This document shows, one piece after another, positions 1,877 to 64,000 of a stretch of DNA of 64,000 nucleotides. Source of the DNA: Naegleria gruberi (taxonomy: Eukaryota); assembly GCA_000004985.1 (NCBI GenBank), contig GG738881.1, one strand, 5' to 3'. How positions within the stretch are numbered: the stretch's first letter is position 1; every line of letters begins with the position of its first letter. A program made the position numbers and the translations under genes. The notes beneath the pieces were generated by a model, which had not been told where the DNA came from, did not search any database, and saw only the letters and a program-made list of their open reading frames with translations.

Positions 1877-3496
1877 ATGGAACCAGTAAATATCTTGCTA
1901 ATTGATTTCAATGAAGTACCCAAAAACTTCTCATCCTCTTCATCGTCATCATTAATCGGAATGTTGTTTGCAAAATTTCAAAATCAAAGCAAAGGTTTTC
2001 GTAAGTGGCTTCTGAAACGAGAGGATTTTCTGATGGAAATTGCACTCCATGAGAAATGTTATCTAGATTCCCATCGGGTTGGATTTACCTACATAGATCC
2101 TGTCTATTTGAATTTATCACTTGAATTTATTCACGATTGGGAAATAATAGAACAATTAATTGATTATGTTCCGAGTCAATATTTACCTGCTTCTTGTGCT
2201 ACGAGACAGTTTTGGAAGAAATTATTGGGGAAAAGAGGATGTTGGTTTTCTAGCCTTCCACAGGAGTTGAAACAAGATAGGGAATTGATTATGAGTGCTG
2301 TTGGAGCTGGAGATTGTGAAATATTTTCATCGCTTCCTATTGAATTGGTGAATGATTTGGAATTTATGAGGGAATGCATTAAAATTGAGGGATCTAGTTT
2401 ATTATTTTGTAGAGATGAGGAGGTTAAGAGGGAATTGAATTTTGAGGCTGTTTGTATGGGTTTAGGAATAGAATTTCTCAAACGAGATGAAAATGGAAAG
2501 GTAATTGATTTTGGAGATCAGTTTAATGATGATAGGGAAGTAGTGTTGGAAAATTTGAAAAGGAATGGATCTCTTTTCCAAAAAGTTTCGAACAGGCTCA
2601 AGGATGACAAGATATTAATTATTGAGGCAATGAAAACAAGTAGGTCAATTCTCACTTGTCTATCAAATGAAATGAAACAAGATGAGGAAATAATCAATGC
2701 TGCAATTCAATATAATCAATTCCAAACTCTAAAATGCTACTTTGAAAGTAAGAATTATGTGAAAGATTATGAGAAGGATGTGGAGATGATATGTAAAGTA
2801 TTGGCAGAAAATGGCTCTGATTACGGTTACCTTCCTTCAGATTATAAGCAAGACAAGGATTTACATTTGAGAATTTTCAAAATCCACACAAGTTTTATTG
2901 AAAGATTCCCAAAAGAAATGTTGCAAGACAAGGAAATTATATTAGAGGCAGTCAAAAATCCTCCTACAGGATTTTTACCCTTCAGTTCAGCCTCGTATTC
3001 ATTGAAACAAGATGAAGAGTTTGTGAAGCAAGTTATCGAACTTTCTCCTAGCTCTATAGTAGTCGTCCATAACAATTTGAAGAAAAATAGAAGTTTAGTA
3101 ATGCAAGCTGTAAAACAACAAGGTGGTTTACTCCAATTTTGCAGCCATTTTCGAAAAGATAGAGAAATGCTCTCCATTGCTCTCACACAAGTAACTCAAA
3201 ACAAGTTAACCCAAGATGAGTTTGATTTTCTTTTTGAGGAATCGATAATATCAAAAGAAATGATACCAACTCATTCCAAGCAATTGCTTGAAATAGTTGC
3301 CAAATTTGATCCTCACTTGCTCATGTATAATTCTAATGCAGATGCTGACATTTGGGCAATTGCTGCGAAATATACTGGAACTATCCCACCAAGCATGACT
3401 ATTGAGGAAATGCCAATGCTATTTGAACAACGATTGGAATATGAATATTGTGGATTTTACCTTCCTCCACGTTACAAATCTCATCAATTTGATTGA
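1877..3496 (+). CDS. DUF4116-type repeat protein (539 aa).
   Basis: Single ORF with aaaaaaaATG context. About 10 degenerate ~36-aa repeats of the form LKQDRELIMSAV / MKQDEEIINAAI / LQDKEIILEAVK / LKKNRSLVMQAVKQ / FRKDREMLSIAL, which fit the DUF4116 pattern (D.E.v..Av..ng). Confidence 0.7.
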   Translation: MEPVNILLIDFNEVPKNFSSSSSSSLIGMLFAKFQNQSKGFRKWLLKREDFLMEIALHEKCYLDSHRVGFTYIDPVYLNLSLEFIHDWEIIEQLIDYVPSQYLPASCATRQFWKKLLGKRGCWFSSLPQELKQDRELIMSAVGAGDCEIFSSLPIELVNDLEFMRECIKIEGSSLLFCRDEEVKRELNFEAVCMGLGIEFLKRDENGKVIDFGDQFNDDREVVLENLKRNGSLFQKVSNRLKDDKILIIEAMKTSRSILTCLSNEMKQDEEIINAAIQYNQFQTLKCYFESKNYVKDYEKDVEMICKVLAENGSDYGYLPSDYKQDKDLHLRIFKIHTSFIERFPKEMLQDKEIILEAVKNPPTGFLPFSSASYSLKQDEEFVKQVIELSPSSIVVVHNNLKKNRSLVMQAVKQQGGLLQFCSHFRKDREMLSIALTQVTQNKLTQDEFDFLFEESIISKEMIPTHSKQLLEIVAKFDPHLLMYNSNADADIWAIAAKYTGTIPPSMTIEEMPMLFEQRLEYEYCGFYLPPRYKSHQFD

Positions 3497-10834: not shown

Positions 10835-13800
10835 CTATTTATTTTCGCAAGGTTCAATTGCTGGCTTTTGCTTCTTTTTTAACTTTTGCTCATGTTTGTA
10901 TTCGATGAGTAATTTTTGATAATCGTGAGGGAAGAATCCAAATCTAATAAATTTGATAAGCAGATCAGGAAGTAAGGCAACCACACTTAGCAACATTGTC
11001 ACGAGAATGGCCTTTACACTCATGAAGGTATGATAATACACAAAGTGGAAAGTTCCCTTTCCGAAAAATACTGGAATTGGAGTATAAATTACCACAAATA
11101 CAAAATAGCTCAAGTAACTACCCCAAATCGATAAAATGATTGGAAGGCTCCACGATTTGACTGACAGAGCAAATTTGAAAGTAATAATAGTTACTGTTGT
11201 TGTGAGAACAACTGTTCCAAAGTGGAAAACATCTGATGGTCCATTCTCCAAAATATCTTCATATCCATAACAAATTAAAACTCCAAAGAAAACAATCAAA
11301 GAATGATAGGTGGCATCCAATGTCCAGAAAAGTAAGCTTCTGATATTGAATAAATTACCATGAGTTCCACTCTTTTTCAAAGTAGAGTAAATTTCTGGAT
11401 GTTGTAAAATAACTTCCTCTGGTAAATCCTTCTCAAATACTCCTGAAACAATTGGTTGGAAGAAACAGTAGATAGTATTGAACATTGTAAGAAGCCATGA
11501 TTCAAAAAATATTGTGCATGTAAATCCTGTATAAATACAGTAAAGTATCTGAGGAACCACAATCATGACATTCTTGTAAAAGTTGAAGAGTAAAAAGTCA
11601 GCATTTCTAACACAGCAATATCTTCCATGAAGAGCAATCAATCTGACTAAATTCTTAAATCTAGGGAGAGCATAGTCAGCAGAACGAGAGGCCTGAGAAC
11701 CTTCTTTTCCTTTGATACCTACACCTACAGTTGCTGCTTGAATCATTGCCACGTCATTTACACCGTCTCCAACAGCAAGAGCTTTCTTTTTCAATTTGGA
11801 TTCAATGAGCTTGACTATTCTTGCCTTTTGGAGTGGCTTTAATCTGGAACAAACTGCACAACTAATATGTTGAACAATCTTTAGGAATTGTTTTTCATAC
11901 TTTTCCAGAGCAAAATCCAATGATTTAGAATCAATCACTAATCCATACTCAAAGTGTTTGTTCTTGTGACGCTCAAGAAATTCTAAAGCAACTTTCATCT
12001 TCTTTTTGACATGTTTAGTATTGCAAGAGTCTCGTATTCTTATTTCTATTGTTTCATCTTTGTGTAAGATATTTGTAGAGTAGGCAACATTGATGGCAGT
12101 CTCTGTCTTGTCTCCTGTTAAGACCCAAATTTGAAAGCCGGCTTTGGATAAATAGGTAATAGTCTCTACTGCATTTTCTTGAAGCTTGTCCTCAATGGCT
12201 GTACATCCAATTAATTGTAAATCAATTTCCATATCAGCAGCACTGTGAATTAAAAGCTTTTCTCTATTCTTTGTTGAGAGGGTTGCCTTTGTATATGCTT
12301 CAATCCATACTTGAAATTCTTCTTCTGAAATTTCCTTTCTAGCACATACAAGAGTTCTCAAACCCTTAATTGAAAATGTTTCAAGAGCAAGTTTCAAGTC
12401 GGTGACATAATGCTTTCTAGCTCTACATCTTTTGATCATGACGCTATCAGCCCCTTTTACATAACAAATATATCTTCCTTCTGGGCTTTTAACAATTACA
12501 CACATTCTCTTTCTGTCTGATGTAAATTCAATGGTTGCAACAATGTCATAAAACTTCTTTTCTCCCATCTCATCAATTAGAACACCTGCGTTTGTTCTTT
12601 GTAACAACACAAATCCATTATTTCTGGCTGCTTCTAATAGAGCTATTTCATCTGAAGAAGGTCCATCATAAACAATACGCTCTGGGTTCTTTGGATCACG
12701 TTCAGGAATGACATTGTTATTCAATGCTAGACATAAGAGGAACTCTCTCAAAAGGTAGGCATGGTAACCAGCTGTATCAGATACAGGTGGCTCTTCCAAG
12801 CTTGGTTTGTGTTCAGTCATGTAATTCTTCATTAAACCTGGATTACGTATTTCCGAGTAGTACAACCCACCAACCCATGAATCAGAGTATTTCATTTCAT
12901 TTTGAGTGAGAGTACCTGTCTTGTCTGAAAATATCACATCCAAATTAGAAAGAGCTTGATTCATATTAGATGATTTGACTTCTGCTTTAAAGTCTCCATG
13001 CCACATTTCCTTGTCACTCTCTATCATTTTGGATTGGAAAGTTTTAATAATTTCCAAACCAACAACCAATGACATTGGAATCATAAGATTTAACAAAATG
13101 AAACAAGTAACCCATGTGGACATGACAGATGTAAAGGAAGCAGGTGCGGAACTAACTGGTCTTAAATAGAATGCTTTGATTTGATAATTATCTTGGAATA
13201 ATCCATAAAATGCAGCCACAATAGCGCAAATAATTTGCTGTAAGATTAAAAGGAATACTAAAATTTTGTTCAATGTAATGTCCAAGTCGTTTCTCTTTTG
13301 TTTGTTCTCTTTCAAGTTCTTTAAAATCTTGGTGTGATTACCCACATAAATAGCAATACCATAAATATGTTTTGTGTTCTTCAGCACACATCCTCTGAGA
13401 AGTAGATTATCCATAGTCATAGCTTCCTTTTGAGTTAATTTTTGATCCCCTACTTTTGCTTTCAGTTTGATGTTGCCTTCAAAAGTATCCAAGTTGCTGT
13501 TAGGAAGTTCAACCTTCAGTTGACCATCCAAATCACTCAAACTTTTGTGAATGGTATGTTCTGGAATATCGTGCAAGAATTTTCCAGCTTTAAGAGATCG
13601 TCTCGTTTTCAGATTTGTTTCGCCGTCCAGATTCGCCGTCTCTACATAGCACATATCATCCTCTCTTGAGGAGTGTATACACAACAAATCGGAAGGGAAT
13701 GTTTCTTCCTTGCTTACAAGTACAATTTCTCCTATTTCTACATCCTTGACTCTAATTTCAACCACCTGACCACCTCTAATTACTCTACACTTTTCATTGT

Positions 13801-15853
13801 TAGCTTTTCTGTCTTGTCTATAACGTTGAAGATCTTCAATGGCGTCCTTAAACATTTGAATCATTACAATTACAATAAGTGGAATAATGGAGGTAGCTGG
13901 TGATACTGGAGAAATATCAGGAAGTAATACTGCAATAACTGATATTAAAAAATAAATATTGGTAACCTTTTTGAATTGTTCAAAAAGGTTTTTTGGAATA
14001 AAGGTTAACAAAGTATACTTTGTTGTTCTGACATAGTTTGTAGGCCATGACTTTCTATTATTTTTGTTTTCTTCTCGGTTGTTTACATAAATTCTCTCAA
14101 ATTGCTTTTTAGAATCTTCAGTTTTGGTGGTAGTTTCAGTTATTGTTGGAGGTGCTGTGACAACAGATTCGTCCTCGTCATCACTAAATCCCTCTTCTTC
14201 TGCTTTTCGCAATTGTTTAACAATATTCTTATTAACAATATCTTTTACAGGTTTCATGCTCAAATAATCATTGACATTGTACGAGTCGACTTGTCTTGGC
14301 CTTTCTTTGGAATTTTCAATCATGGCCATATCAGTTTTCTTAACCACAAAATCATCCTCAGCTTCTTGAGCATCTTCAACATAGAGTGATTCCTCTCTGA
14401 TGTGATTAACATATCTTGGTTTTCGTTTTGGAGGCTCCATTACAGATGGTAAATCGATACTTGAACCTGGTAAGCTCATTGGTGAGGAATAAACAACTGG
14501 TTGTGGAACAATTCCAGTTTCAAAAACTGAATCTGTAGTATTGATTTTCAAAGGACTTCGTTTTTCAACAAGTGGAGACTCGTGGAGTTCCAAAGTCTTC
14601 TTGGAATTGCCTTTTCTAAATGTCTTTTTCTTTGCAGCTTTTAATTCTCTATCTTCCTCATCACTACTGCTAAATCCAAGTTCCTTGGATGTCATGTGAA
14701 GAGGTGTCTTTGACTCCTTTCCATTGCTATCCAAATTAGAAACTCCTTCAATTTCTGTGACATGAATATTCTTATTGTCAGAAGAAACGATAATTTTGCT
14801 TTGTTTGAGACGACCAATTTGAGAAGTAACTTCCACATCTTCATCTTTAGAAAAGTAACGAGAAGGAATCCTCTTCCATCTTTCGGAAAGTAGTGAAGGA
14901 TCATTTCCATAAATTAATGCCATATCATCCTGAGTCTTGCTGTTGTAAATAGATCCAACTCTACTGTTTCTTCTATTATAGGATTTTCTCCAAGCTTCAA
15001 GCAATTGATCATCATCAAACTTGAAATTTGATTGACCACTTCTCGATGTTGTAGTGGTTGTTGTTGTGGTAAAGGTAGAAGTTTCGTCGGTATTTGTATC
15101 TACTCTGAATACAGGAGGATAAATAGGAATGTGATTGTTGGTGGTATTGTTATTTGTACTGTTTGTGTTAATAATAGTAGAAGGCTGTTTAGTTGATGTT
15201 TTCTCAACAGAAGATACCAAATTTAAGTTTGGTGAAGCAATCTTTTCTTCATCTGTAATAATTCTACTAATTCTGTGCAGTTGACTATTGTCTAAACTCA
15301 CTCTGTTTAATTGTTTCGATGGAGTCAATGAAGCAGAGGGTGGATTCGCACTTGATTGCTTTCTTGGAGGAGTTGTTGATAAATTGTCTTGTCGTGGTGG
15401 AAACTGGTACGTTTCCTCTTTATATGCAAATGATGAAGAAGGAATTGAGACAACAGTGTCGTTAAATGTTATTCTGGGTGATGGATTGATAATGTGATTG
15501 GGTATTGTTGTGGAAGTAGGATTCTCAGTAGCAACTGTTATTGATGCTGCAGAGTTGTTGGTAGTAGGTACTGATGAAAGTAAATTATTATCATGATGAA
15601 TATTAGAAAAGGATGTAGTTGTTGTGGAAGGTTTGGACTGTTGATGTAATATTACATCTTGGTCCTCATCTTCATCTACTAAATTTACATTGGTTCCAAC
15701 AATAATTGATGAAGTATTATGATTATATTGTTGATTATTTACATGTTCTCCATCCATTGATTCAACTTCGATATGAATTACATCCACATCCTCAGCCACA
15801 ATATTAGAATCCTCTTGATGATGATTATTAGTATCACCACTCGTATTTAGCAT
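10835..15853 (-). CDS. P4-type ATPase (phospholipid-transporting flippase, Drs2/ATP8-like), 1672 aa, single exon, with a ~700-aa low-complexity N-terminal extension.
   Basis: ATG at 15853. P-type signatures: FSDKTGTLTQNEM (DKTGT phosphorylation site), TGDKTETAINVAYS, GDGVNDVAMIQAATVGVGIKGKEG (P4 subtype), and 10 predicted TM segments. N-terminus is rich in S/T/N runs. Confidence 0.85.
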   Translation of the reverse strand: MLNTSGDTNNHHQEDSNIVAEDVDVIHIEVESMDGEHVNNQQYNHNTSSIIVGTNVNLVDEDEDQDVILHQQSKPSTTTTSFSNIHHDNNLLSSVPTTNNSAASITVATENPTSTTIPNHIINPSPRITFNDTVVSIPSSSFAYKEETYQFPPRQDNLSTTPPRKQSSANPPSASLTPSKQLNRVSLDNSQLHRISRIITDEEKIASPNLNLVSSVEKTSTKQPSTIINTNSTNNNTTNNHIPIYPPVFRVDTNTDETSTFTTTTTTTTSRSGQSNFKFDDDQLLEAWRKSYNRRNSRVGSIYNSKTQDDMALIYGNDPSLLSERWKRIPSRYFSKDEDVEVTSQIGRLKQSKIIVSSDNKNIHVTEIEGVSNLDSNGKESKTPLHMTSKELGFSSSDEEDRELKAAKKKTFRKGNSKKTLELHESPLVEKRSPLKINTTDSVFETGIVPQPVVYSSPMSLPGSSIDLPSVMEPPKRKPRYVNHIREESLYVEDAQEAEDDFVVKKTDMAMIENSKERPRQVDSYNVNDYLSMKPVKDIVNKNIVKQLRKAEEEGFSDDEDESVVTAPPTITETTTKTEDSKKQFERIYVNNREENKNNRKSWPTNYVRTTKYTLLTFIPKNLFEQFKKVTNIYFLISVIAVLLPDISPVSPATSIIPLIVIVMIQMFKDAIEDLQRYRQDRKANNEKCRVIRGGQVVEIRVKDVEIGEIVLVSKEETFPSDLLCIHSSREDDMCYVETANLDGETNLKTRRSLKAGKFLHDIPEHTIHKSLSDLDGQLKVELPNSNLDTFEGNIKLKAKVGDQKLTQKEAMTMDNLLLRGCVLKNTKHIYGIAIYVGNHTKILKNLKENKQKRNDLDITLNKILVFLLILQQIICAIVAAFYGLFQDNYQIKAFYLRPVSSAPASFTSVMSTWVTCFILLNLMIPMSLVVGLEIIKTFQSKMIESDKEMWHGDFKAEVKSSNMNQALSNLDVIFSDKTGTLTQNEMKYSDSWVGGLYYSEIRNPGLMKNYMTEHKPSLEEPPVSDTAGYHAYLLREFLLCLALNNNVIPERDPKNPERIVYDGPSSDEIALLEAARNNGFVLLQRTNAGVLIDEMGEKKFYDIVATIEFTSDRKRMCVIVKSPEGRYICYVKGADSVMIKRCRARKHYVTDLKLALETFSIKGLRTLVCARKEISEEEFQVWIEAYTKATLSTKNREKLLIHSAADMEIDLQLIGCTAIEDKLQENAVETITYLSKAGFQIWVLTGDKTETAINVAYSTNILHKDETIEIRIRDSCNTKHVKKKMKVALEFLERHKNKHFEYGLVIDSKSLDFALEKYEKQFLKIVQHISCAVCSRLKPLQKARIVKLIESKLKKKALAVGDGVNDVAMIQAATVGVGIKGKEGSQASRSADYALPRFKNLVRLIALHGRYCCVRNADFLLFNFYKNVMIVVPQILYCIYTGFTCTIFFESWLLTMFNTIYCFFQPIVSGVFEKDLPEEVILQHPEIYSTLKKSGTHGNLFNIRSLLFWTLDATYHSLIVFFGVLICYGYEDILENGPSDVFHFGTVVLTTTVTIITFKFALSVKSWSLPIILSIWGSYLSYFVFVVIYTPIPVFFGKGTFHFVYYHTFMSVKAILVTMLLSVVALLPDLLIKFIRFGFFPHDYQKLLIEYKHEQKLKKKQKPAIEPCENK

Positions 15854-34692: not shown

Positions 34693-37231
34693 ATGTCATC
34701 TTTACACCATCAATCCCCAGCTCAAGACGATAACTCTGCTCATAATCGAATAAATGTCTTGTTTGACACTTCTCTCGTAGTGTTTAATCACAACGAAGAT
34801 ACAGTAGACGAAACATCGGAAGAAATTAATATTTTCTTATGGATAAAGACGAAACTTCTCTCCACCATCCGAATGATAGTTTTCGACTATCAAGACAAGG
34901 AAAGATTAGAATTATTCAATAACAGACAAGAAATGCTCTCCAAACGTTTACCACTTTCAGGAATTTTTCATTTAATAATTCTCATTCTCCTGTCAATGAT
35001 AATCGAAAGGTCTGAAGGAGAAGAATCCATTTACTTGTTTCTTATATTGACTGTCATTGAATTCTTTGGAAATATTGGAGTAATTGTCTTGATTTTGAAA
35101 ATGGAATTGCCAATTCTTAATACGGAAATTTGTAATTATTGTAGATTAGTTGCAACTTGTATGATTCGATTGATTTTACAGATTTATTATGGACCATTGT
35201 TTCCTGTGTGGATTTTACAGGTTTATTCAATGATTATTGTGTTGAATGCTTATTATTTCAATAGGGGACCAGCTGTGATTAATTGTTTGATTGTTATTGT
35301 GTTGGGAGCTGTTTCGACTGTACTGAGTCATGTTATTCATTTCGAATATTTTGGAGATAGTTCAATAGAATTTGGACATGAAAGAGTTTGTCATCCGTGT
35401 CGACATTTTGAATATATTCATGAGAGCCAAGTTTCCAATCTTATTAAGGTCATTACATTGCAATCAGTTCTTTGTGGAATAGGTCTCTTATTTTCAGATG
35501 TTTCCATGGAACAGGATGAGAGAAATATTTCACAACAAGTAGAAATTGTCAAGGGAAGAATTTTGAATGAGGAAAAGACCAAATTTATTGGCCATTTGAG
35601 TCATGAAACAAGAAATCCACTCATGGGAAGTATGTTTTTAAATTGAATCGAATATATTTAATTAGCAATAATGATTAGTTATGGGAGCTGCTCAAATTCT
35701 GAAATTTGATTTGGAACAGCAAATGAAACGGAAGAATGTTGCTCTGCAGCATAAATCAATTGTTGAGAAAGTGGATGATATTTACAATAGCTCTGTATTG
35801 TTGTTGCAAATATTGTCAACTTCATTGCAGATTAGTTCTTCAGAGATGGGTGGAGTTCACTTGCAGGGAAGTGAATTTAACATGTTGGAGCTGGTAGAAA
35901 CGATTTGCTCAGTGTTTAGTTCAATTGCTGTGGATAGAGGCATTTCTTTGCAATCTTTTATTGATATTGTGAATATTCCAGATATGATTTATGGAGATAA
36001 TACAAGAGTTTCACAAATATTGATGAATTTTGTTTCGAATAGTTTGAAATATACTCCTAATAAGGGGTCAGTTACTGTAAAATGCACTGTTTCAACTCAA
36101 GAAGAGTTGAACGAGTTTAGAATTGATAAGAAGAAAACTAGTGAACTCATGATGTGTTATCCTGCCGAAAAGTTAGATGTGAATGATTTGATATTTATAA
36201 CCTTTACATGTGCTGATAGTGGATGTGGAATGAATTCCAATCAAATTATCAACCTTTTTTCGAGTAATCAACAGGCCAATCCTTCCATGAGGCCTACTTC
36301 TAGGGCTAGACGAACAGGAAATGATCAATTTATTGAGAGTCATGGGTTTGGATTGAAAATCTCAAAGCATTTGATTGATTTAATGAATGGTAAGATTCAT
36401 ATTAGTAGTGAAATCGGAAAGGGGACAACTATTAAGATTATCATTCCTTTCTTCAAACAGGATAAGAAAGGTATGATTCTCGAGGAACAAATTGAACAAT
36501 TGAGAAATATTTCAAAAGAGAAGGAACTATCCCAAGTTACTGTATCTTTGCTGGATCAAAATAGGATATTAATTAAATATTTGGAATATCTACTTCCAAA
36601 TAATGTAATGATAATCGAGTCAGATGTTGAAAGGGAAGAATCTATGCAAGTGAAAACGATTGATAGAAATTGCTCAGTTTCTCTATTGTCAAAAGGTGAC
36701 ACTACCTCATTGAATTATGAAACTCTATTCCTAGCAAGACCTTTCAAGGTGAAAGATATAATTTCAGTATTGATTGAAAGCATGGCTGGAGATTTTGAAA
36801 TCAACAGTTCAGAAACAGGTTCAGAAATTACAAAGATTCGATCGAGTCGTTCTCTTGACTCATTCACATGCAATATTCTTGTGGTGGATGATAATTCAAT
36901 TAATAGAAAGGTTGTGCACAGATTGTTACAAATTATTGGATATGAGAACATTGATTTTGCTGTGGATGGTCTGCAAGCATTCGAGAAGTTCAAATTGTCC
37001 AACTTCCAGTTTGTATTGATGGATCTAGAAATGCCCAACATGAATGGAAAGGAATCTTGCGAATTAATGAGAAAGTTTGAAATGGAAACCAAACGAAATA
37101 GGGCTGAAATTTTTGCAGTAACTGGAGACATGACACAATCTATGGCAACTTGTGCTGATTTTGATAATATTCTATTCAAGCCAATTTCCAAAGATTCCCT
37201 CAGTTTGACTCTCAATAAGAACACTGACTAA
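34693..37231 (+). CDS. Membrane-bound hybrid sensor histidine kinase (TM sensor region, HisKA, HATPase_c, REC receiver), 2 exons: 34693-35629 and 35679-37231.
   Basis: aaaaATG start. N-terminal ~230 aa has 5-6 hydrophobic helices. H-box FIGHLSHETRNPLMG | (GTATGT...gattag, 49-nt intron, phase 1) | IMGAAQILKF. N-box region (ILMNFVSNSLKYTPNKGSV), G-box GFGLKISKHLIDLMNGKIHISSEIGKGTTIKIIIPF. Receiver ILVVDDNSINRKVVHRLLQIIGYENIDFAVDGLQAFEKF...FVLMDLEMPNMNGKES...IFAVTGDM...FKPISKDSL. Confidence 0.8.
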
Positions 37232-51884: not shown

Positions 51885-54800
51885 ATGTCGAATCAACATA
51901 GGAGACCAACATCTTCTTTTCAATTACATGAGGACTCTTATGAACCGAGCTGGAGTCAACAATTTAGTCACAGTACGAGGACTTTTAGACAAACGGATGA
52001 TTATTTAAATGATGTATATCCAAAACGACCAAATTCACAAACATACTTGGACAAAATTCGAGAAAAGAAAAGAAACACTGTTCTTTCAGATCCCACTGTT
52101 TGGGCAAAAGAAACAAGGGATCTCCTCAAAAAGGATATGAGTATTCCTTTACCAAGGAAAATTAAAAGAAGAAATGTTGGAGGAATACCCACCAATACAA
52201 TTGGCAGAAGGATTAAGGGCAATTTGTACAAACAAGCCCCAATACTACCAAAGGAAAACCAATTAAATCCAGCCCTTCCTCTTCCACCAATAGCAGAATC
52301 AGAGTTGGATAAGGGTTTAATTAATTTAATTAATAGAAAGTTGGTACCATCATTCATTGATTTGTCACCACTTGTAAATAACGACGAGAATTCACCAATA
52401 ACTGCTTCACAAGCTGTTTTAAATCCCTATCACTATCAATTAGTTAAGAAGAATGTACAAACGGAGGATACTGCAAACTCACATCTTTATAGAATGGAGA
52501 GTGGTCCACCAAGCCCGGAAAGAGAAATACCCTACACCACCAGATCAAATCCAACAACAAGGAAAAAGGAACCCTCAATAGTTCCATTCGGAAATCAAAA
52601 AATTTACAATCTCAAATCAAAAGATGCCACCGTTTATATGCCTAAAAATTATATTCAACAACCAATTGATTCAGTTCTTGATCCAACTGAGGAACAACGT
52701 ATCAACTCATTGCTTGAGGCAACAAATGATAGAAAAAAGCAACAATATTTGAGAACCTATATTGACCTTATGGATGAATACAGTTTGCATCATGTTATTA
52801 TACGTCATGGATCATTACTGGATAATACTCCAGAATATTTGTCATTCTATAGAACTTATCAATATAACTGGAGTAGAATTTATAGCGTTCTTTCCCTATT
52901 GGAAAAACTACTTCGAGACTTTACAGTTCCTCTGGCTTACGTAGATGGTAAGAAAGTTGTTTTCTTAGCTGAAAGAACTATAGATCCGAATAATAGACAA
53001 TTGATTGATTGTTTGGTTAATGCTGAAAATGTAATTCCTTACATAAAACTTCCAGATGTTAAATTCATGGGAAGAAATGGGCAGAATAATGCAGCAACAT
53101 GTATTCAGAGAATTTGGAAAGGTTATATACAAAGAAAAAGGTTTTCAAGACTCAAGTACGAACATAAAATGGCCACAAGAATTCAATTTTGGTGGTTCCT
53201 TAGAGTTAGATTATTCAGGACCAAAGAAAAAATTCAGAAAATTATACACGACGAGGAATTCAAATGGAAATCAAAGATGGATGAATTCAAAAAGAATTGG
53301 GATACCATTAAGAAATCAAAGAGGACAATTATTCACATCAATTCTCTTACATATGATGAATCTGTAAGAACAACAACTCCAAAATTCAAATCATCCCAAA
53401 ATTCTCAACTCTTCAGAATTTTGGATTTATTGGATCCAAATGTAGAAGTAGTATATGTTACATCTGAGCCATTGGATAGTGATGTATTATCATATGTTTG
53501 TAAATTATTGGAATTTGGAGGAGTTGAGGAACCAATGAGAAGACTCAAAGTAATTACACCAGAATCTAATGACAAATATCCAGATTCGACAAGTTTATCA
53601 TCTCTTGTTTATTATTCCCAAAGAACAATGAGGCATTTGCGAACTCTTGTCATGGGTAAGACGGCGTACCTTGTTCCAGGTCAACTCGGAAAAGACGATT
53701 TAAGACTTGCTATCAAACTTCAGTTACCAATTTTAGGATCAGATCCTGTTAACTCTACTATTTATGGAACCAAGTCAGGAAGCAAGAGAATTTTTGCTCA
53801 AGCAGAAGTGAATATGCCTTTTGGAATTTATGATATTTATGAGGAAGAAGACTTGATCTCTAATTTATCGAGGAAACTAATGGAATATCCACAATATTCT
53901 CGTTGGATAATTAAGATAGATAACGAATATGGAGGAAGAGGCCTTGCTTTCTTGGATGTAAACAAACTTTCCTCACTCAAGGAGAAACGAAGAAATGAAC
54001 CAATGTTTGCTGAGAGGTTAAGGGCCAATCTTGCAGAAGAACTGGGAGAATACATGCCGGAGAGATTGAACATTGTATCGAAACATGTGTATCCCCAATG
54101 GCCTGATTTCCTCAAAGCACTTAAAGATTGTGGTGGAGGTGTTATTGAAGCTGTTCCAAACAAGATTATCGGTTCTCCTTCTGTTAATTTGTTCATTGAA
54201 CCCAATGGAGAAGTTAATATTTTATCTGTACAAGAACAGTTAGTCAATTCTCAATATTGCACCATGTCATGCTCTTTCCCTCATTATTCTGCGCCATATG
54301 ACGCACTGAGAGAGGCATCCTTCTCAGTTGGAAGAGTATGTCATTCCAAAAAGATATTCGGTTATGTAACGATAGACTTTGTAATATTTGTTGACGAGAA
54401 GGATTGTGCTAGAATGTGGGCAGTAGATCTAAAGTTAAGACTCACAGACAATGCACTCTCACATAGAATGTTCGAATTGATTACCAAATCAAGATTTGAT
54501 AAGGACAGTGGACAATCTCTGAGCTCTGAAGGCTTAGAGAGCGAAATTAACAATAGAAGCTACATATACAGTGGAATGATGAGAAATCCTGCAATAAGCT
54601 CTTGGCATCACTCTTCCTTCTTCAGCGATTGCAGAGTGAATGGTTTTTCCTTGGACGGATACGGAAAGTTTGGTGTTATTTTCCAACAAGTTGATTCATT
54701 ACTGAGAGGGCAACTTGGTGTTTTATGTATTGGAAAGACTGCACGAGAGACATCTACACTATTCTGCAATTTAGTGAACTATCTAATAAGTTTGATACCT

Positions 54801-54890
54801 AAGGAAGATCGTTTACCAATCGGTTATGATTCCAATCTGAAAATCTTAGAAGAAATTGTTTCAAACCTCGTTCATGGTAGTAATGAATAA
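51885..54890 (+). CDS. IQ-motif-containing protein with a C-terminal ATP-grasp-like region (possibly IQCH-like), 1001 aa.
   Basis: ATG at 51885. Tandem IQ motifs AATCIQRIWKGYIQRKRFSRLKYEHKMATRIQFWWFLRVRLFR. C-terminal half has ...IKIDNEYGGRGLAFLD... reminiscent of ATP-grasp/TTL-type folds. Family assignment is tentative. Confidence 0.45.
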   Translation: MSNQHRRPTSSFQLHEDSYEPSWSQQFSHSTRTFRQTDDYLNDVYPKRPNSQTYLDKIREKKRNTVLSDPTVWAKETRDLLKKDMSIPLPRKIKRRNVGGIPTNTIGRRIKGNLYKQAPILPKENQLNPALPLPPIAESELDKGLINLINRKLVPSFIDLSPLVNNDENSPITASQAVLNPYHYQLVKKNVQTEDTANSHLYRMESGPPSPEREIPYTTRSNPTTRKKEPSIVPFGNQKIYNLKSKDATVYMPKNYIQQPIDSVLDPTEEQRINSLLEATNDRKKQQYLRTYIDLMDEYSLHHVIIRHGSLLDNTPEYLSFYRTYQYNWSRIYSVLSLLEKLLRDFTVPLAYVDGKKVVFLAERTIDPNNRQLIDCLVNAENVIPYIKLPDVKFMGRNGQNNAATCIQRIWKGYIQRKRFSRLKYEHKMATRIQFWWFLRVRLFRTKEKIQKIIHDEEFKWKSKMDEFKKNWDTIKKSKRTIIHINSLTYDESVRTTTPKFKSSQNSQLFRILDLLDPNVEVVYVTSEPLDSDVLSYVCKLLEFGGVEEPMRRLKVITPESNDKYPDSTSLSSLVYYSQRTMRHLRTLVMGKTAYLVPGQLGKDDLRLAIKLQLPILGSDPVNSTIYGTKSGSKRIFAQAEVNMPFGIYDIYEEEDLISNLSRKLMEYPQYSRWIIKIDNEYGGRGLAFLDVNKLSSLKEKRRNEPMFAERLRANLAEELGEYMPERLNIVSKHVYPQWPDFLKALKDCGGGVIEAVPNKIIGSPSVNLFIEPNGEVNILSVQEQLVNSQYCTMSCSFPHYSAPYDALREASFSVGRVCHSKKIFGYVTIDFVIFVDEKDCARMWAVDLKLRLTDNALSHRMFELITKSRFDKDSGQSLSSEGLESEINNRSYIYSGMMRNPAISSWHHSSFFSDCRVNGFSLDGYGKFGVIFQQVDSLLRGQLGVLCIGKTARETSTLFCNLVNYLISLIPKEDRLPIGYDSNLKILEEIVSNLVHGSNE

Positions 54891-57919: not shown

Positions 57920-59206
57920 TTAAAAGAGCAAATCTTCATTAGTTGAGGTCCATTGATTTTCATCAAAACATTCTTCTTGTTCTGTTGAGAATAAATCAGT
58001 GTGGAATAACTCTGAAGCTTGAGCATCTTCAAATTGTACATCCAATTCACCACCTTCAGTTGTGAAACCAGCATCCATTTCAAAGAAATTATTTTCATCA
58101 ATTTGTTTGTTCATGAAAATAACTTGATTTGGATAATAGGTTGGTGTATAAATTGGATAAGCATAAGGAACAGAGATTGCATCAACAAATGGAGCAGCAT
58201 TATGAACAACATATGGATGATAGGTTGGCATGGTTTGAATAACTGGAATGACTGGAGCAGTCATTGTGTTTTGAGGGAAAAGAACACCAGCTTGTTGAAG
58301 TGATTGGAAAAAGTCAATTTGCTTTGGTTGAGGTGATTCTGTTGACTTTTCATCTGGAGTCTTCTTTGTCTCTTCATTGTTAATGATTGGAGAACGTAAT
58401 AATACAACTGAATTACCATTCATATTCATATTTGATGGTGATTCAAGTAATGATGACAAGACATTCTTTGGTTCTTGAACAGCAGCTGTGGAAGTTGAAA
58501 TAACAGTTGTTGGACTGTTTGTTTGTGTGAAATTAACAATAGTTGGAGTCTTAATAAGTGGAGAGGAAGATGATTCAACAACTTTGGCAGTAACACTTGT
58601 TGTTGATTCAGTCTTCAATGGAGTTGGTCTCTTCTTCTTGGTGTATTGCATATCTTTGGTGGCAGAAGATCTCTTTCTCTTTGGTGTTTGAGATTGAGTG
58701 TTGGCAGTAGCAGAAGTGCTTGTTGAGGCAGATGGTTCCTTCTTATCCTTTTGCTTCTTGATAGAACGGAAAGCTTGATTAATATCAACACCACCTTCAA
58801 CAACTTCTTGTCCTTCCTTTTGCATCTTTCTCTTGTAACGAACTCTCTTATTGGAGAACCAATTGTTAATTTGGAGAAGGGACAAAGTTGTTTGATCGAC
58901 TAATCCCTTCTTTTCATCCTCACTAAAACAGATTATTAGAATATACAACAACAATGAATTGTAAACATACCTTGGATATGGATTTTGAAGATTAGCAAAG
59001 AACCAATCATTCAATACTTTGGTAATTTCCTTTGGGTAACCTTTTCTCTTCTTTCCGTGTTTTGACTTTCCATCAGCCTTGTCGCTTTCACAACCAGAAT
59101 CACTTTCAGAATATTGATGGAGAAGTGATGGGGAATCAAGAATCTTATCTTCTTGAGTTTCAATCAATGATGATTGACTTGTTGCAATAGTAGTAGTTGA
59201 TTGCAT
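57920..59206 (-). CDS. TALE-class (MEIS/PBC-like) homeodomain transcription factor, 2 exons: 59206-58971 and 58922-57920.
   Basis: ATG at 59206. Homeodomain KRKGYPKEITKVLNDWFFANLQNPYP | (GTATGT...gttttag, 48 nt, phase 2) | SEDEKKGLVDQTTLSLLQINNWFSNKRVRYKRK. The PYP three-residue loop extension and WF.N.R motif are diagnostic of TALE (compare MEIS [33 protein letters not shown]). Confidence 0.8.
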   Translation of the reverse strand: MQSTTTIATSQSSLIETQEDKILDSPSLLHQYSESDSGCESDKADGKSKHGKKRKGYPKEITKVLNDWFFANLQNPYPRYVYNSLLLYILIICFSEDEKKGLVDQTTLSLLQINNWFSNKRVRYKRKMQKEGQEVVEGGVDINQAFRSIKKQKDKKEPSASTSTSATANTQSQTPKRKRSSATKDMQYTKKKRPTPLKTESTTSVTAKVVESSSSPLIKTPTIVNFTQTNSPTTVISTSTAAVQEPKNVLSSLLESPSNMNMNGNSVVLLRSPIINNEETKKTPDEKSTESPQPKQIDFFQSLQQAGVLFPQNTMTAPVIPVIQTMPTYHPYVVHNAAPFVDAISVPYAYPIYTPTYYPNQVIFMNKQIDENNFFEMDAGFTTEGGELDVQFEDAQASELFHTDLFSTEQEECFDENQWTSTNEDLLF

Positions 59207-59996: not shown

Positions 59997-61187
59997 TTAA
60001 ACAATTATCGAGCTCAATTCAAGCTGTTTCAGCTTGTTGAATTGAGCTTTTAATTGACTTTTTTCTCTTTCACTAGGTCTCAAATGTTTCATTCTCACTG
60101 TTTTCATCTTTTTCCTTGCTAGTTTTCTTCTCTTCTTCAATAATTTAAAACATTCATTCTCAAATTCTTTCAAAAACTTCTTCCTCTCTTGTTTGCTGTT
60201 GATAGTGATGGATTGTTTCTTCAGGAAGGCGTTGTATAAATATTCGAATCGGTGTGAAATGCTTCGGTTTTGAGTGATGAAAAATTTCCAATCATAGCGA
60301 ATCCGATCAAGAATATGTGGAGGGAGAACAGACCCCAAAAACATCGAACTACTGTTGTAAGAAGTTGTCGGAAACTGTAGTTGATTCGAATACGGTATGG
60401 AGGTTGTTGAATAATTATTGTTGAATAAACCTTGATTAGTGCTGGTGTTACCCACAGTTGAAGTATTGGTATAGAGAACAAAATTTCTCAAGAAGGGAGG
60501 CATCAACTTGTAGTCGATATCTGTTAAAATCCAATAATAGGGTGACAGTTTTGGATCTAATAAAAAGAAGGATGGGGGAACAAACTTGGAAATGACCTTG
60601 ATTTGCTGTCTATACATCTCTGATTTAATTTGACACTTCTCTATTGTATCAAGCAAGTCTCTCATTAAAATGTCTTTTGCAAGACCAAATTTGTTTTTAA
60701 AAACAATTGGGAAAACTCTTTTCTGGAATGTTGACTCATTCCCAATGCCACTAACTACAGTAGATGAAGTCATCATCATGGTTTGATTGCCTTGTGTTAG
60801 TTTGTTGAGGTAACGAGTATAGTTTTGATGTAAAAAGTCAATCTTTCTTCCAATCCCATTCAAAAATTCAACACTGTATTGTCCTTTGATTGGTCTTGGT
60901 TGAGAAGATGACAATGATGGGTTACCTTCTCCATCATTGTAGGAACCAAATAGTTTCTTTATATTAATGAAAGGAACAGGAACTTGGAGTGTAAAATACT
61001 TTGATGATTGACTTGCTAGAGAGCCTGTTCTAGAGCTGAATAGCTTGTTCATGATTGGTTTCAAAAGCCAATCAACACCCTTTCCAGCCAAGTACAACAA
61101 TGTGCTGATGAAGAAGAGTAACTTGAGAAGGCTTTGAATCTTGTCCACACTCATCATGATGGACTTGTTGTTATTGTTAGAGATCAT
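59997..61187 (-). CDS. Hypothetical protein (396 aa) with an N-terminal hydrophobic segment and a basic, coiled-coil-like C-terminus.
   Basis: ATG at 61187. LLKLLFFISTLLYLAG TM-like segment. C-terminal KKRRKLARKKMKTVRMKHLRPSEREKSQLKAQFNKLKQLE. Confidence 0.35.
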   Translation of the reverse strand: MISNNNNKSIMMSVDKIQSLLKLLFFISTLLYLAGKGVDWLLKPIMNKLFSSRTGSLASQSSKYFTLQVPVPFINIKKLFGSYNDGEGNPSLSSSQPRPIKGQYSVEFLNGIGRKIDFLHQNYTRYLNKLTQGNQTMMMTSSTVVSGIGNESTFQKRVFPIVFKNKFGLAKDILMRDLLDTIEKCQIKSEMYRQQIKVISKFVPPSFFLLDPKLSPYYWILTDIDYKLMPPFLRNFVLYTNTSTVGNTSTNQGLFNNNYSTTSIPYSNQLQFPTTSYNSSSMFLGSVLPPHILDRIRYDWKFFITQNRSISHRFEYLYNAFLKKQSITINSKQERKKFLKEFENECFKLLKKRRKLARKKMKTVRMKHLRPSEREKSQLKAQFNKLKQLELSSIIV

Positions 61188-63428: not shown

Positions 63429-64000
63429 TTAGAATTTTCTCTTGTTGAAGAAAAGAACGAGATTTCCAGGTCCCACAGTTGGACCTGGAAGTTCTCTAAC
63501 TTTTTCACTTGGATTTGATTCATTGTTGAGAGTGATGATTTCATAGAATTGTAATATACGAGACAAGATGGTGAATGCTTCCTGTTATGGAGAAAAATAC
63601 TATGAGATTATTTTAAAGATTCTACTTACATATTGAGCGAATTTGTAACCCTTTAGAATAAATTGTAAATGAAATGATTCGAATTTTAAGAATTACTTAC
63701 AATACCTAAAATGGAATATTGGTAAAATAATGATGATATATTAACAAAACTTACATTTTCTTTGACCCATTGAAAATGGAATCCATGTGAAATCGGTGTG
63801 AGTCTTTTGACGTTCCTCAAAATCAGATGAAAAGCGTTCAGGAATGAAATCTGATGGCTCTGTCCAATTATTTTCATTGGCATGTGATCCAAACAAATCA
63901 ATTGCAACAATTGTTCCTTTTGGAATGTTGTACTTTCCAATGGTGGTAGATTTCTTTGCTACTCTAAAGTTTGCAAGAACAGGTGGATGCAAACGCAAAC
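63429..64000 (-). CDS. Cytochrome P450, 3' portion only (gene continues past the window end). Exons 64000-63755, a putative 5-nt micro-exon 63705-63701, 63650-63630, and 63581-63429.
   Basis: The upstream exon ends ...FTWIPFSMGQRK + T (phase 1) before GTAAGT. Splicing in GTATT and then GGTTACAAATTCGCTCAATAT gives PFSMGQRKCIGYKFAQYEAFTILSRILQFYEI..., the P450 haem-binding signature FxxGxRxCxG followed by the conserved helix L. All donors are GTAAGT; acceptors are ttttag, ctaaag, ataacag. Confidence 0.55.

Follow-up and report, generated by a model that had tools for sequence, protein, structure and literature searches.

A 5-nt exon predicted to complete the haem-ligand cysteine codon of a Naegleria gruberi cytochrome P450 gene

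At the end of a 64,000-nt stretch of Naegleria gruberi DNA (the whole stretch is called the window here), the minus strand carries what we take, with a probability of about 0.85, to be the 3′ end of NAEGRDRAFT_69960, a clan-4-like cytochrome P450 gene that is spliced through exons of 5 and 21 nt. The shorter of these, GTATT, holds bases 2 and 3 of the codon for the haem-ligand cysteine (TGT) together with the entire codon for the isoleucine behind it (ATT), and the predicted product is a P450 with a haem-thiolate cysteine. In this model, the part of the gene that lies in the window is divided as follows:

63755..63998, minus strand: window part of the large upstream P450 exon, known by its translation; the exon runs on past the window end
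63754-63706, minus strand: intron 1, 49 nt, GTAAGT...TTTTAG, phase 1 within the Cys codon
63705-63701, minus strand: micro-exon GTATT, 5 nt
63700-63651, minus strand: intron 2, 50 nt, GTAAGT...CTAAAG, phase 0 behind Cys-Ile
63650-63630, minus strand: 21-nt exon GGTTACAAATTCGCTCAATAT, coding for GYKFAQY, the start of the L helix
63629-63582, minus strand: intron 3, 48 nt, GTAAGT...AACAG, phase 0 behind ..AQY
63581-63429, minus strand: last exon, 153 nt, coding for EAFTILSRILQFYEI...FFNKRKF, with the stop TAA at 63431-63429

Within the window, the large exon encodes LRLHPPV...PERF...FSMGQRK and ends in ...CAA AGA AAA T, the final T (63755) being base 1 of the cysteine codon. Joined, the four exons read ...FSMGQRK-C-I-GYKFAQY-EAFTIL..., and the spliced product, ...FSMGQRKCIGYKFAQYEAFTILSRILQFYEI...FFNKRKF*, contains no internal stop. 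The modelled mRNA carries ...AGAAAATGTATTGGTTACAAATTCGCTCAATATGAAGCATTC... across the junctions, with CAAAGAAAATGTATTGGTTACAAATTCGCTCAATATGAAGCATTC as the diagnostic spliced string; an mRNA from which GTATT had been skipped would instead carry AAAATGGTTAC, in which the T is joined to GGTTAC, and reading on from there gives a frameshift and a stop. Left unspliced, the frame reads ...FSMGQRKCKFC*, and intron 1 contains an in-frame stop (TAA). In the unspliced frame, a TGT codon is likewise completed, here by the opening GT of the intron 1 donor; the boundary of this intron is therefore formally ambiguous by 2 nt, and among the possible boundaries only those listed above are GT-AG.

All three introns have a GTAAGT donor and an AG acceptor, and the micro-exon itself, in the context TTTTAG/GTATT/GTAAGT, is bordered by a canonical acceptor and a canonical donor, its flanking introns measuring 49 and 50 nt. 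Other candidate introns of the window are 49-60 nt long, and lengths of 48-50 nt are therefore typical of the N. gruberi genome. An earlier note on this DNA had proposed the same arrangement, and all of its coordinates, exons and flanking splice sites agree base for base with the minus strand.

To see how far the splice sites and the reading frame constrain this model, we combined up to three GT-AG introns, with a minimum length of 30 nt each, in every possible way between 63830 and 63560. Of the 629 canonical splice models obtained, 63 stay in frame to the natural stop. The haem-binding motif FxxGxRxCxG is restored in only two of the 629, and both use GTATT, as the earlier note had argued when it called the 5-nt exon the sole route to the motif; the two share introns 1 and 2 exactly and differ by a 4-nt shift of intron 3. 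Its further point, that any other splice would still have to keep the spacing of the cysteine, leads to the same place, with the enumeration leaving only models that contain the 5-nt exon and no motif-keeping model without the 5 nt among the 63 in frame. Scored against a family hidden Markov model (HMM) built from 12 relatives with the window gene left out, the model proposed in the note ranks top (194.3 bits), and the five best-scoring models all include the 5-nt exon.

The arrangement of signals around the micro-exon exceeds chance. When the 104 nt between the outer donor and the outer acceptor were shuffled, and both introns were to stay at least 30 nt long, a suitably placed AG/GYNNN/GT arose in 6e-4 of the shuffles, a proportion that falls to about 2e-6 when the donor is GTAAGT (AG/GYNNN/GTAAGT).

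The spliced 140-residue C terminus matches the Pfam p450 profile (PF00067) with E=4.2e-30 and 105 bits (cut-off 22.8), covering profile positions 332-443 of 462. The haem signature with its thiolate cysteine, FSMGQRKCIG, is present only once the 5-nt exon has been spliced in, the PERF motif lies inside the window exon, and the K-helix ExxR (E-G-L-R) spans the window end, its full form being present both in the near-identical allele described below and in the deposited protein XP_002674977.1. The product had been described in the note as a P450 Cys pocket followed by an L helix, a description borne out by the profile match (E=4e-30) and by an ungapped fit of C-I-G to the rest of the clade.

The splice pattern is already known as annotation, and there is nothing to re-annotate. 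The deposited N. gruberi protein XP_002674977.1 (EFC42233.1, UniProt D2VM00; NAEGRDRAFT_69960) is 480 residues long and comes from the contig that also holds the flippase gene of the window; its residues 341-480 are exactly the spliced product, and identical to the product drawn in the note, which had named comparison with orthologous P450 gene models as a check. Thus, the 5-nt and 21-nt exons are already part of the public model, which may itself be a homology-driven prediction. We had considered that the gene might be unannotated and rejected this once XP_002674977.1 was found in the cluster of a 131-residue metagenome open reading frame (ORF), P0001: the homology-search table shows one representative per 90% cluster, so that the 131-residue ORF masked the 480-residue RefSeq protein. 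A missing named match in such a table of cluster representatives is not evidence for an unannotated gene. We found no paper that names the gene identifiers of NAEGRDRAFT_69960, and the spliced-junction 23-mer had 0 matches in the metagenome and metatranscriptome contigs of JGI.

The portion of the gene upstream of 64000 is known from the allele and the deposited protein only. There, the deposited product (P0284, residues about 210-230) is without some 50 residues compared with the paralogue P0285 (residues about 170-230), in which the stretch reads FRKSLEVLFTTGIFVKLF...SSKLDEIL; it maps upstream of the window. The shortfall may reflect a genuine deletion, or the public model may have drawn an intron too long.

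The window as a whole is gene-dense, with a G+C content of 34%, and positions 1-62000 are tightly packed with long ORFs, of which about 35 have at least 150 residues. The 1672-residue ORF of a P4-type flippase (10835-15853, minus strand) is 100% identical to an N. gruberi protein, and its orthologues in N. lovaniensis and N. fowleri are 62-65% identical. Other features are:

1877-3496: DUF4116 repeat protein
35681-37231: C-terminal part of a hybrid histidine kinase
51885-54890, plus strand: IQCH-like ATP-grasp protein
57920-59206, minus strand: homeobox gene, seemingly with a short intron

No database record was found for the products of the ORFs at 59997-61187 (minus strand) and 51885-54890 (plus strand), and a tRNA scan of the window found none.

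A near-identical allele, L003 (ENA ERZ929261), allows the exons and introns to be compared position by position. It is 95% identical by BLAST when indels in the 3′ flank are included, and 97% by column identity in the aligned part. Its micro-exon and its intron 1 are identical to those of the window; intron 2 differs by a 2-nt indel and one substitution and intron 3 by one substitution, which makes two substitutions and a 2-nt indel in 147 nt of intron. The exons differ by two synonymous changes, both in the last exon, and no non-synonymous change in about 425 nt, and the remaining differences lie in the 3′ flank. This pattern rules out an assembly artefact, and the changes in intron 2 would be intolerable if that segment were read as coding. 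Few as the changes are, their distribution fits constraint on the coding exons.

The micro-exon is unchanged in this allele, a copy that is nearly identical overall, and 5 nt are too short to carry a conservation signal of their own. No more distant orthologue with both flanking introns was found; the paralogues have one or the other. The allele and three of the paralogues compared below (L001, L006 and L091) all come from one environmental metagenome (ENA ERZ929261 / ERR1078381). The N. gruberi-like genome in it has, besides this allele, at least three other members of the P450 clade; no paper was found that names PRJEB11402.

To put the splice pattern into the context of the clade, we compared the Cys pocket of related genes. 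C-I-G is invariant and ungapped in nine clade members, the relatives coming from metagenomes or annotated genomes of Naegleria and Willaertia, and four relatives that are uninterrupted across the pocket (L006, L087, L088 and L090) served as a check on its length. The introns around the pocket vary as follows:

L001: sole Cys-pocket intron behind Cys-Ile, the position of intron 2 (TGC ATT/GTAAGT...TTTTAG/GGA TTT AAA)
L002: sole intron behind ..AQY, the position of intron 3 (CAA TAC/GTAAGT...ATAACAG/GAA GCT)
L091: intron directly behind TGT, 2 nt from the position of intron 1 in the window
L089 (N. lovaniensis): intron in the preceding Arg codon
L004 and L005: the Arg-codon intron plus a second intron, giving an 18-nt exon that carries the Cys
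L006 and L090 (Willaertia): no intron in the Cys-pocket region
P0021 (N. lovaniensis) and P0023 (N. fowleri): genes wholly intronless

Each border of the micro-exon thus has a counterpart elsewhere. The ORF of another N. gruberi P450, P0183, reads through as ..RKC-KC, which puts an intron of phase 1 into the Cys codon at the position of intron 1, and its annotated N. gruberi relative P0289 reads ..RKCIGYKF. Read-through of P0150 as ..RKC-VS places its intron 2 nt from the intron 1 position, as in L091; two relatives at a greater distance, P0182 and P0216, give ..RKCI-VS, the position of intron 2. GYKFAQY, which fills the 21-nt exon, is encoded without interruption in the paralogues L002 and L091. 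A rough neighbour-joining tree, from 140 residues only, groups the window gene with L002, L091 and L001. The intron pattern could be the outcome of differential loss, starting from an ancestor with three introns, or of repeated gain, and the displaced intron of L091 (T/GT... in the window gene versus TGT/GT... in L091) may have slid by 2 nt or been gained independently. A search with the family alignment for more loci returned only distant P450 loci (L007-L086, 31-41% identity), which are useless for comparing introns.

Introner-like or mutually derived introns were considered and rejected, as the introns show no significant similarity: pairwise alignment of the three window introns gave z-scores of at most 1.6 against shuffles, alignment with their positional counterparts in L091, L001 and L002 gave z below 1, and the largest z for any window intron was 2.5. 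As a separate observation, six intron positions fall within about 12 codons of the Cys pocket when 63582-63754 of the window is compared with L001, L002, L004, L006 and L087-L091.

How could such an exon arise and be spliced? It would have originated where an intron position in the Cys codon and another behind Cys-Ile, independent of each other, coincide in one gene; positions that occur singly elsewhere come together in the window gene, and a 5-nt exon is the result. With introns of about 50-60 nt in this genome, splice sites are probably paired across the intron, and exon length would then not be limiting in itself. Because they are only 5 nt apart, the acceptor of intron 1 and the donor of intron 2 could not be occupied simultaneously, and the introns probably leave the transcript one after the other, in the manner reported for plant micro-exons, around which the downstream intron is usually removed first (PMC8831610). 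The strong donor GTAAGT at 63700 would have to outcompete the weak GTATTG that opens the micro-exon, as otherwise five bases would be lost and the frame broken. A special RNA structure or a known RNA family at the micro-exon was rejected: folding around it gave a z-score of +0.89, and an Rfam search around it gave no match.

Recursive splice sites are zero-length exons, and in fungal stwintrons adjacent intron sequence is removed stepwise. Like both, the locus has an acceptor followed almost immediately by a donor (AG/GTATT/GTAAGT) and needs stepwise removal. Unlike at a recursive splice site, the mRNA must retain the five bases, which keep the frame and complete Cys-Ile; unlike in a stwintron, the splice signals of each intron are left intact by the other. 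A recursive splice site with a zero-length exon was accordingly rejected, as dropping GTATT gives a frameshift and a stop.

The least unlikely of the competing explanations is that the micro-exon is included in part of the transcripts only, with skipping, use of GTATTG as a recursive donor or retention of intron 1 leading to non-productive isoforms that act as a regulatory brake. AG/GTATTG does look like a recursive splice site, introns around plant micro-exons tend to be detained (PMC8831610), and skipping, which joins T to GGTTAC..., shifts the frame to an early stop and appears in none of the 63 in-frame models, but GTATTG is much inferior as a donor to GTAAGT at 63700. We hold this reading to be improbable, and it is compatible with the main explanation rather than truly an alternative to it. 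Clearly less probable still is a decaying, non-functional P450 copy that stays unspliced, ends in ...RKCKFC* and is without an L helix. The unspliced frame does contain F-x-x-G-x-R-x-C before its stop, the spliced-junction 23-mer is without a match in the metagenome and metatranscriptome contigs, and the annotated protein seems about 50 residues short upstream. Yet decay would have to coexist with downstream pieces that are all open in the required frames, with three consensus GTAAGT donors, with a micro-exon signal expected by chance at about 2e-6, with a product that aligns ungapped with functional-looking relatives, and with an allele that differs at 3 places in 147 nt of intron but in its exons by 2 synonymous changes and 0 non-synonymous ones.

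Two variants keep most of the model and move the boundaries of intron 1, and we give hardly any weight to either. If its donor were GTTAAT at 63745, the product would read ...RKCKFCIGYKF..., with an insertion of three residues and the 5-nt exon still in use; this variant is in frame to the natural stop and third by HMM score (186.4 bits), but GTTAAT is weak beside GTAAGT, the insertion spoils the spacing of FxxGxRxCxG and has no counterpart in any family member, and the result differs from the deposited model. The other variant yields the same mRNA with boundaries moved by 2 nt, so that an intron AAGT...AGGT lies behind the Cys codon and the exon shrinks to 3 nt (ATT). The GT repeated at both ends of intron 1 makes the junction formally ambiguous, and the intron of L091 sits exactly behind TGT; against it, a non-canonical AA..GT would be needed where the boundaries of our model give a perfect GTAAGT..AG, and the mRNA is indistinguishable, which leaves such a shift as remote as the weak donor. 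Splicing through GTATT with the boundaries listed above remains the reading that we prefer.

Further ultra-short exons occur in the family. A 7-nt exon, ACATGAG, finishes a Gly codon and then codes for His-Glu of the I-helix AGHETT motif, and is found in L003 (1-97, the part of the window gene beyond 64000), in L091 (1276-1387) and in L006 (about 1718-1827). The intron-exon-intron block around it is 88-93% identical between paralogues whose main coding exon is 68-76% identical, third codon positions being 54% identical in the one pair measured (L003-L006). Such conservation suggests that the introns are selected for their sequence or have undergone local gene conversion. Selection might act on dedicated intronic elements that enable ultra-short exons to splice; local gene conversion and a 2-nt intron slide between paralogues could also account for the conserved flanks. 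In L091, whose C-terminal 140 residues share 61% identity with the window gene and whose N-terminal ORF clusters with NAEGRDRAFT_66581 / P0285, a run of ultra-short exons of 7, 7 and 14 nt (1270-1935) spells SLAG-HE-TT-STTLQ-W. An 18-nt exon with the haem cysteine, A AAA TGC ATT GGC TAT AG, lies between two GTATGT introns in a related P450 from two independent assemblies (L004 6330-6505; L005 about 2210-2385). More tentatively, and with the odds against it, the 5-nt exon might be one symptom of an intron hot spot in a P450 clade of the N. gruberi lineage, which would take in the six intron positions near the Cys pocket and the 7-, 7- and 14-nt exons of the I helix, while relatives in N. fowleri and N. 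lovaniensis are intronless.

Exons of 5 and 21 nt had been called very unusual. They are rare in general, and to that extent the description holds; they are less so here, as exons of 7, 7, 14 and 18 nt recur in the family and micro-exons in P450 genes have published precedents (PMC1184071, PMC12940212). One is found in Fusarium CYP621A P450 genes, whose PKG motif contains an exon of a single nucleotide, confirmed by SRA reads and conserved in 20 orthologues (Nelson & Syed 2026, PMC12940212). As in our locus, the ultra-short exon falls within an invariant P450 motif and between introns of about 50 nt, and it was deduced from incompatible exon phases, consensus AG/GT borders and a family member without introns, which served as length marker (PMC12940212). 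Whereas that exon is 1 nt long, fungal, within PKG and backed by SRA reads, the Naegleria exon is 5 nt long, heterolobosean, within the haem Cys codon, read from sequence alone, and followed by a second short exon of 21 nt (PMC12940212). In the P450ome of Phanerochaete chrysosporium, too, genes are broken up by numerous small introns (45-55 bp), with micro-exons that code for 2-10 residues across many paralogues (PMC1184071); unlike in Naegleria, the shortest exon in this basidiomycete is 6 bp, with no stated link to the haem cysteine (PMC1184071).

Exons of 1-15 nt number in the thousands in plants (Yu et al. 2022, PMC8831610), among them a validated adjacent pair of 5 and 12 nt in rice (PMC8831610) and a 1-nt exon in Arabidopsis APC11 (PMC4674806). 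Like the Naegleria exon, these are tiny coding exons in a conserved domain that are lost in relatives through loss of flanking introns (PMC8831610, PMC4674806). Plant micro-exons, which are constitutive, are deeply conserved and backed by RNA-seq, and have longer introns, whereas the Naegleria case is known from its DNA; and whereas those of plants are mostly absent from annotations, the Naegleria exon is already in the public model (PMC8831610).

Thus, the feature is real, was rightly interpreted, is of a known kind and is of modest interest. Phase bookkeeping, an invariant motif and consensus splice sites were enough for reasoning from sequence to recover a correct and non-trivial gene model. 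Compared with the known cases, only the host lineage, the split haem-thiolate Cys codon and the second exon of 21 nt are different. The gene offers a protist case in which the codon of a catalytic residue is split across a 5-nt exon, and it brings the documented micro-exons of P450 genes to Heterolobosea. It indicates that ultra-short exons can arise where two independent intron positions coincide, and the family-wide pattern is a possible small natural test set for the way in which short-intron spliceosomes deal with exons of 5-20 nt.
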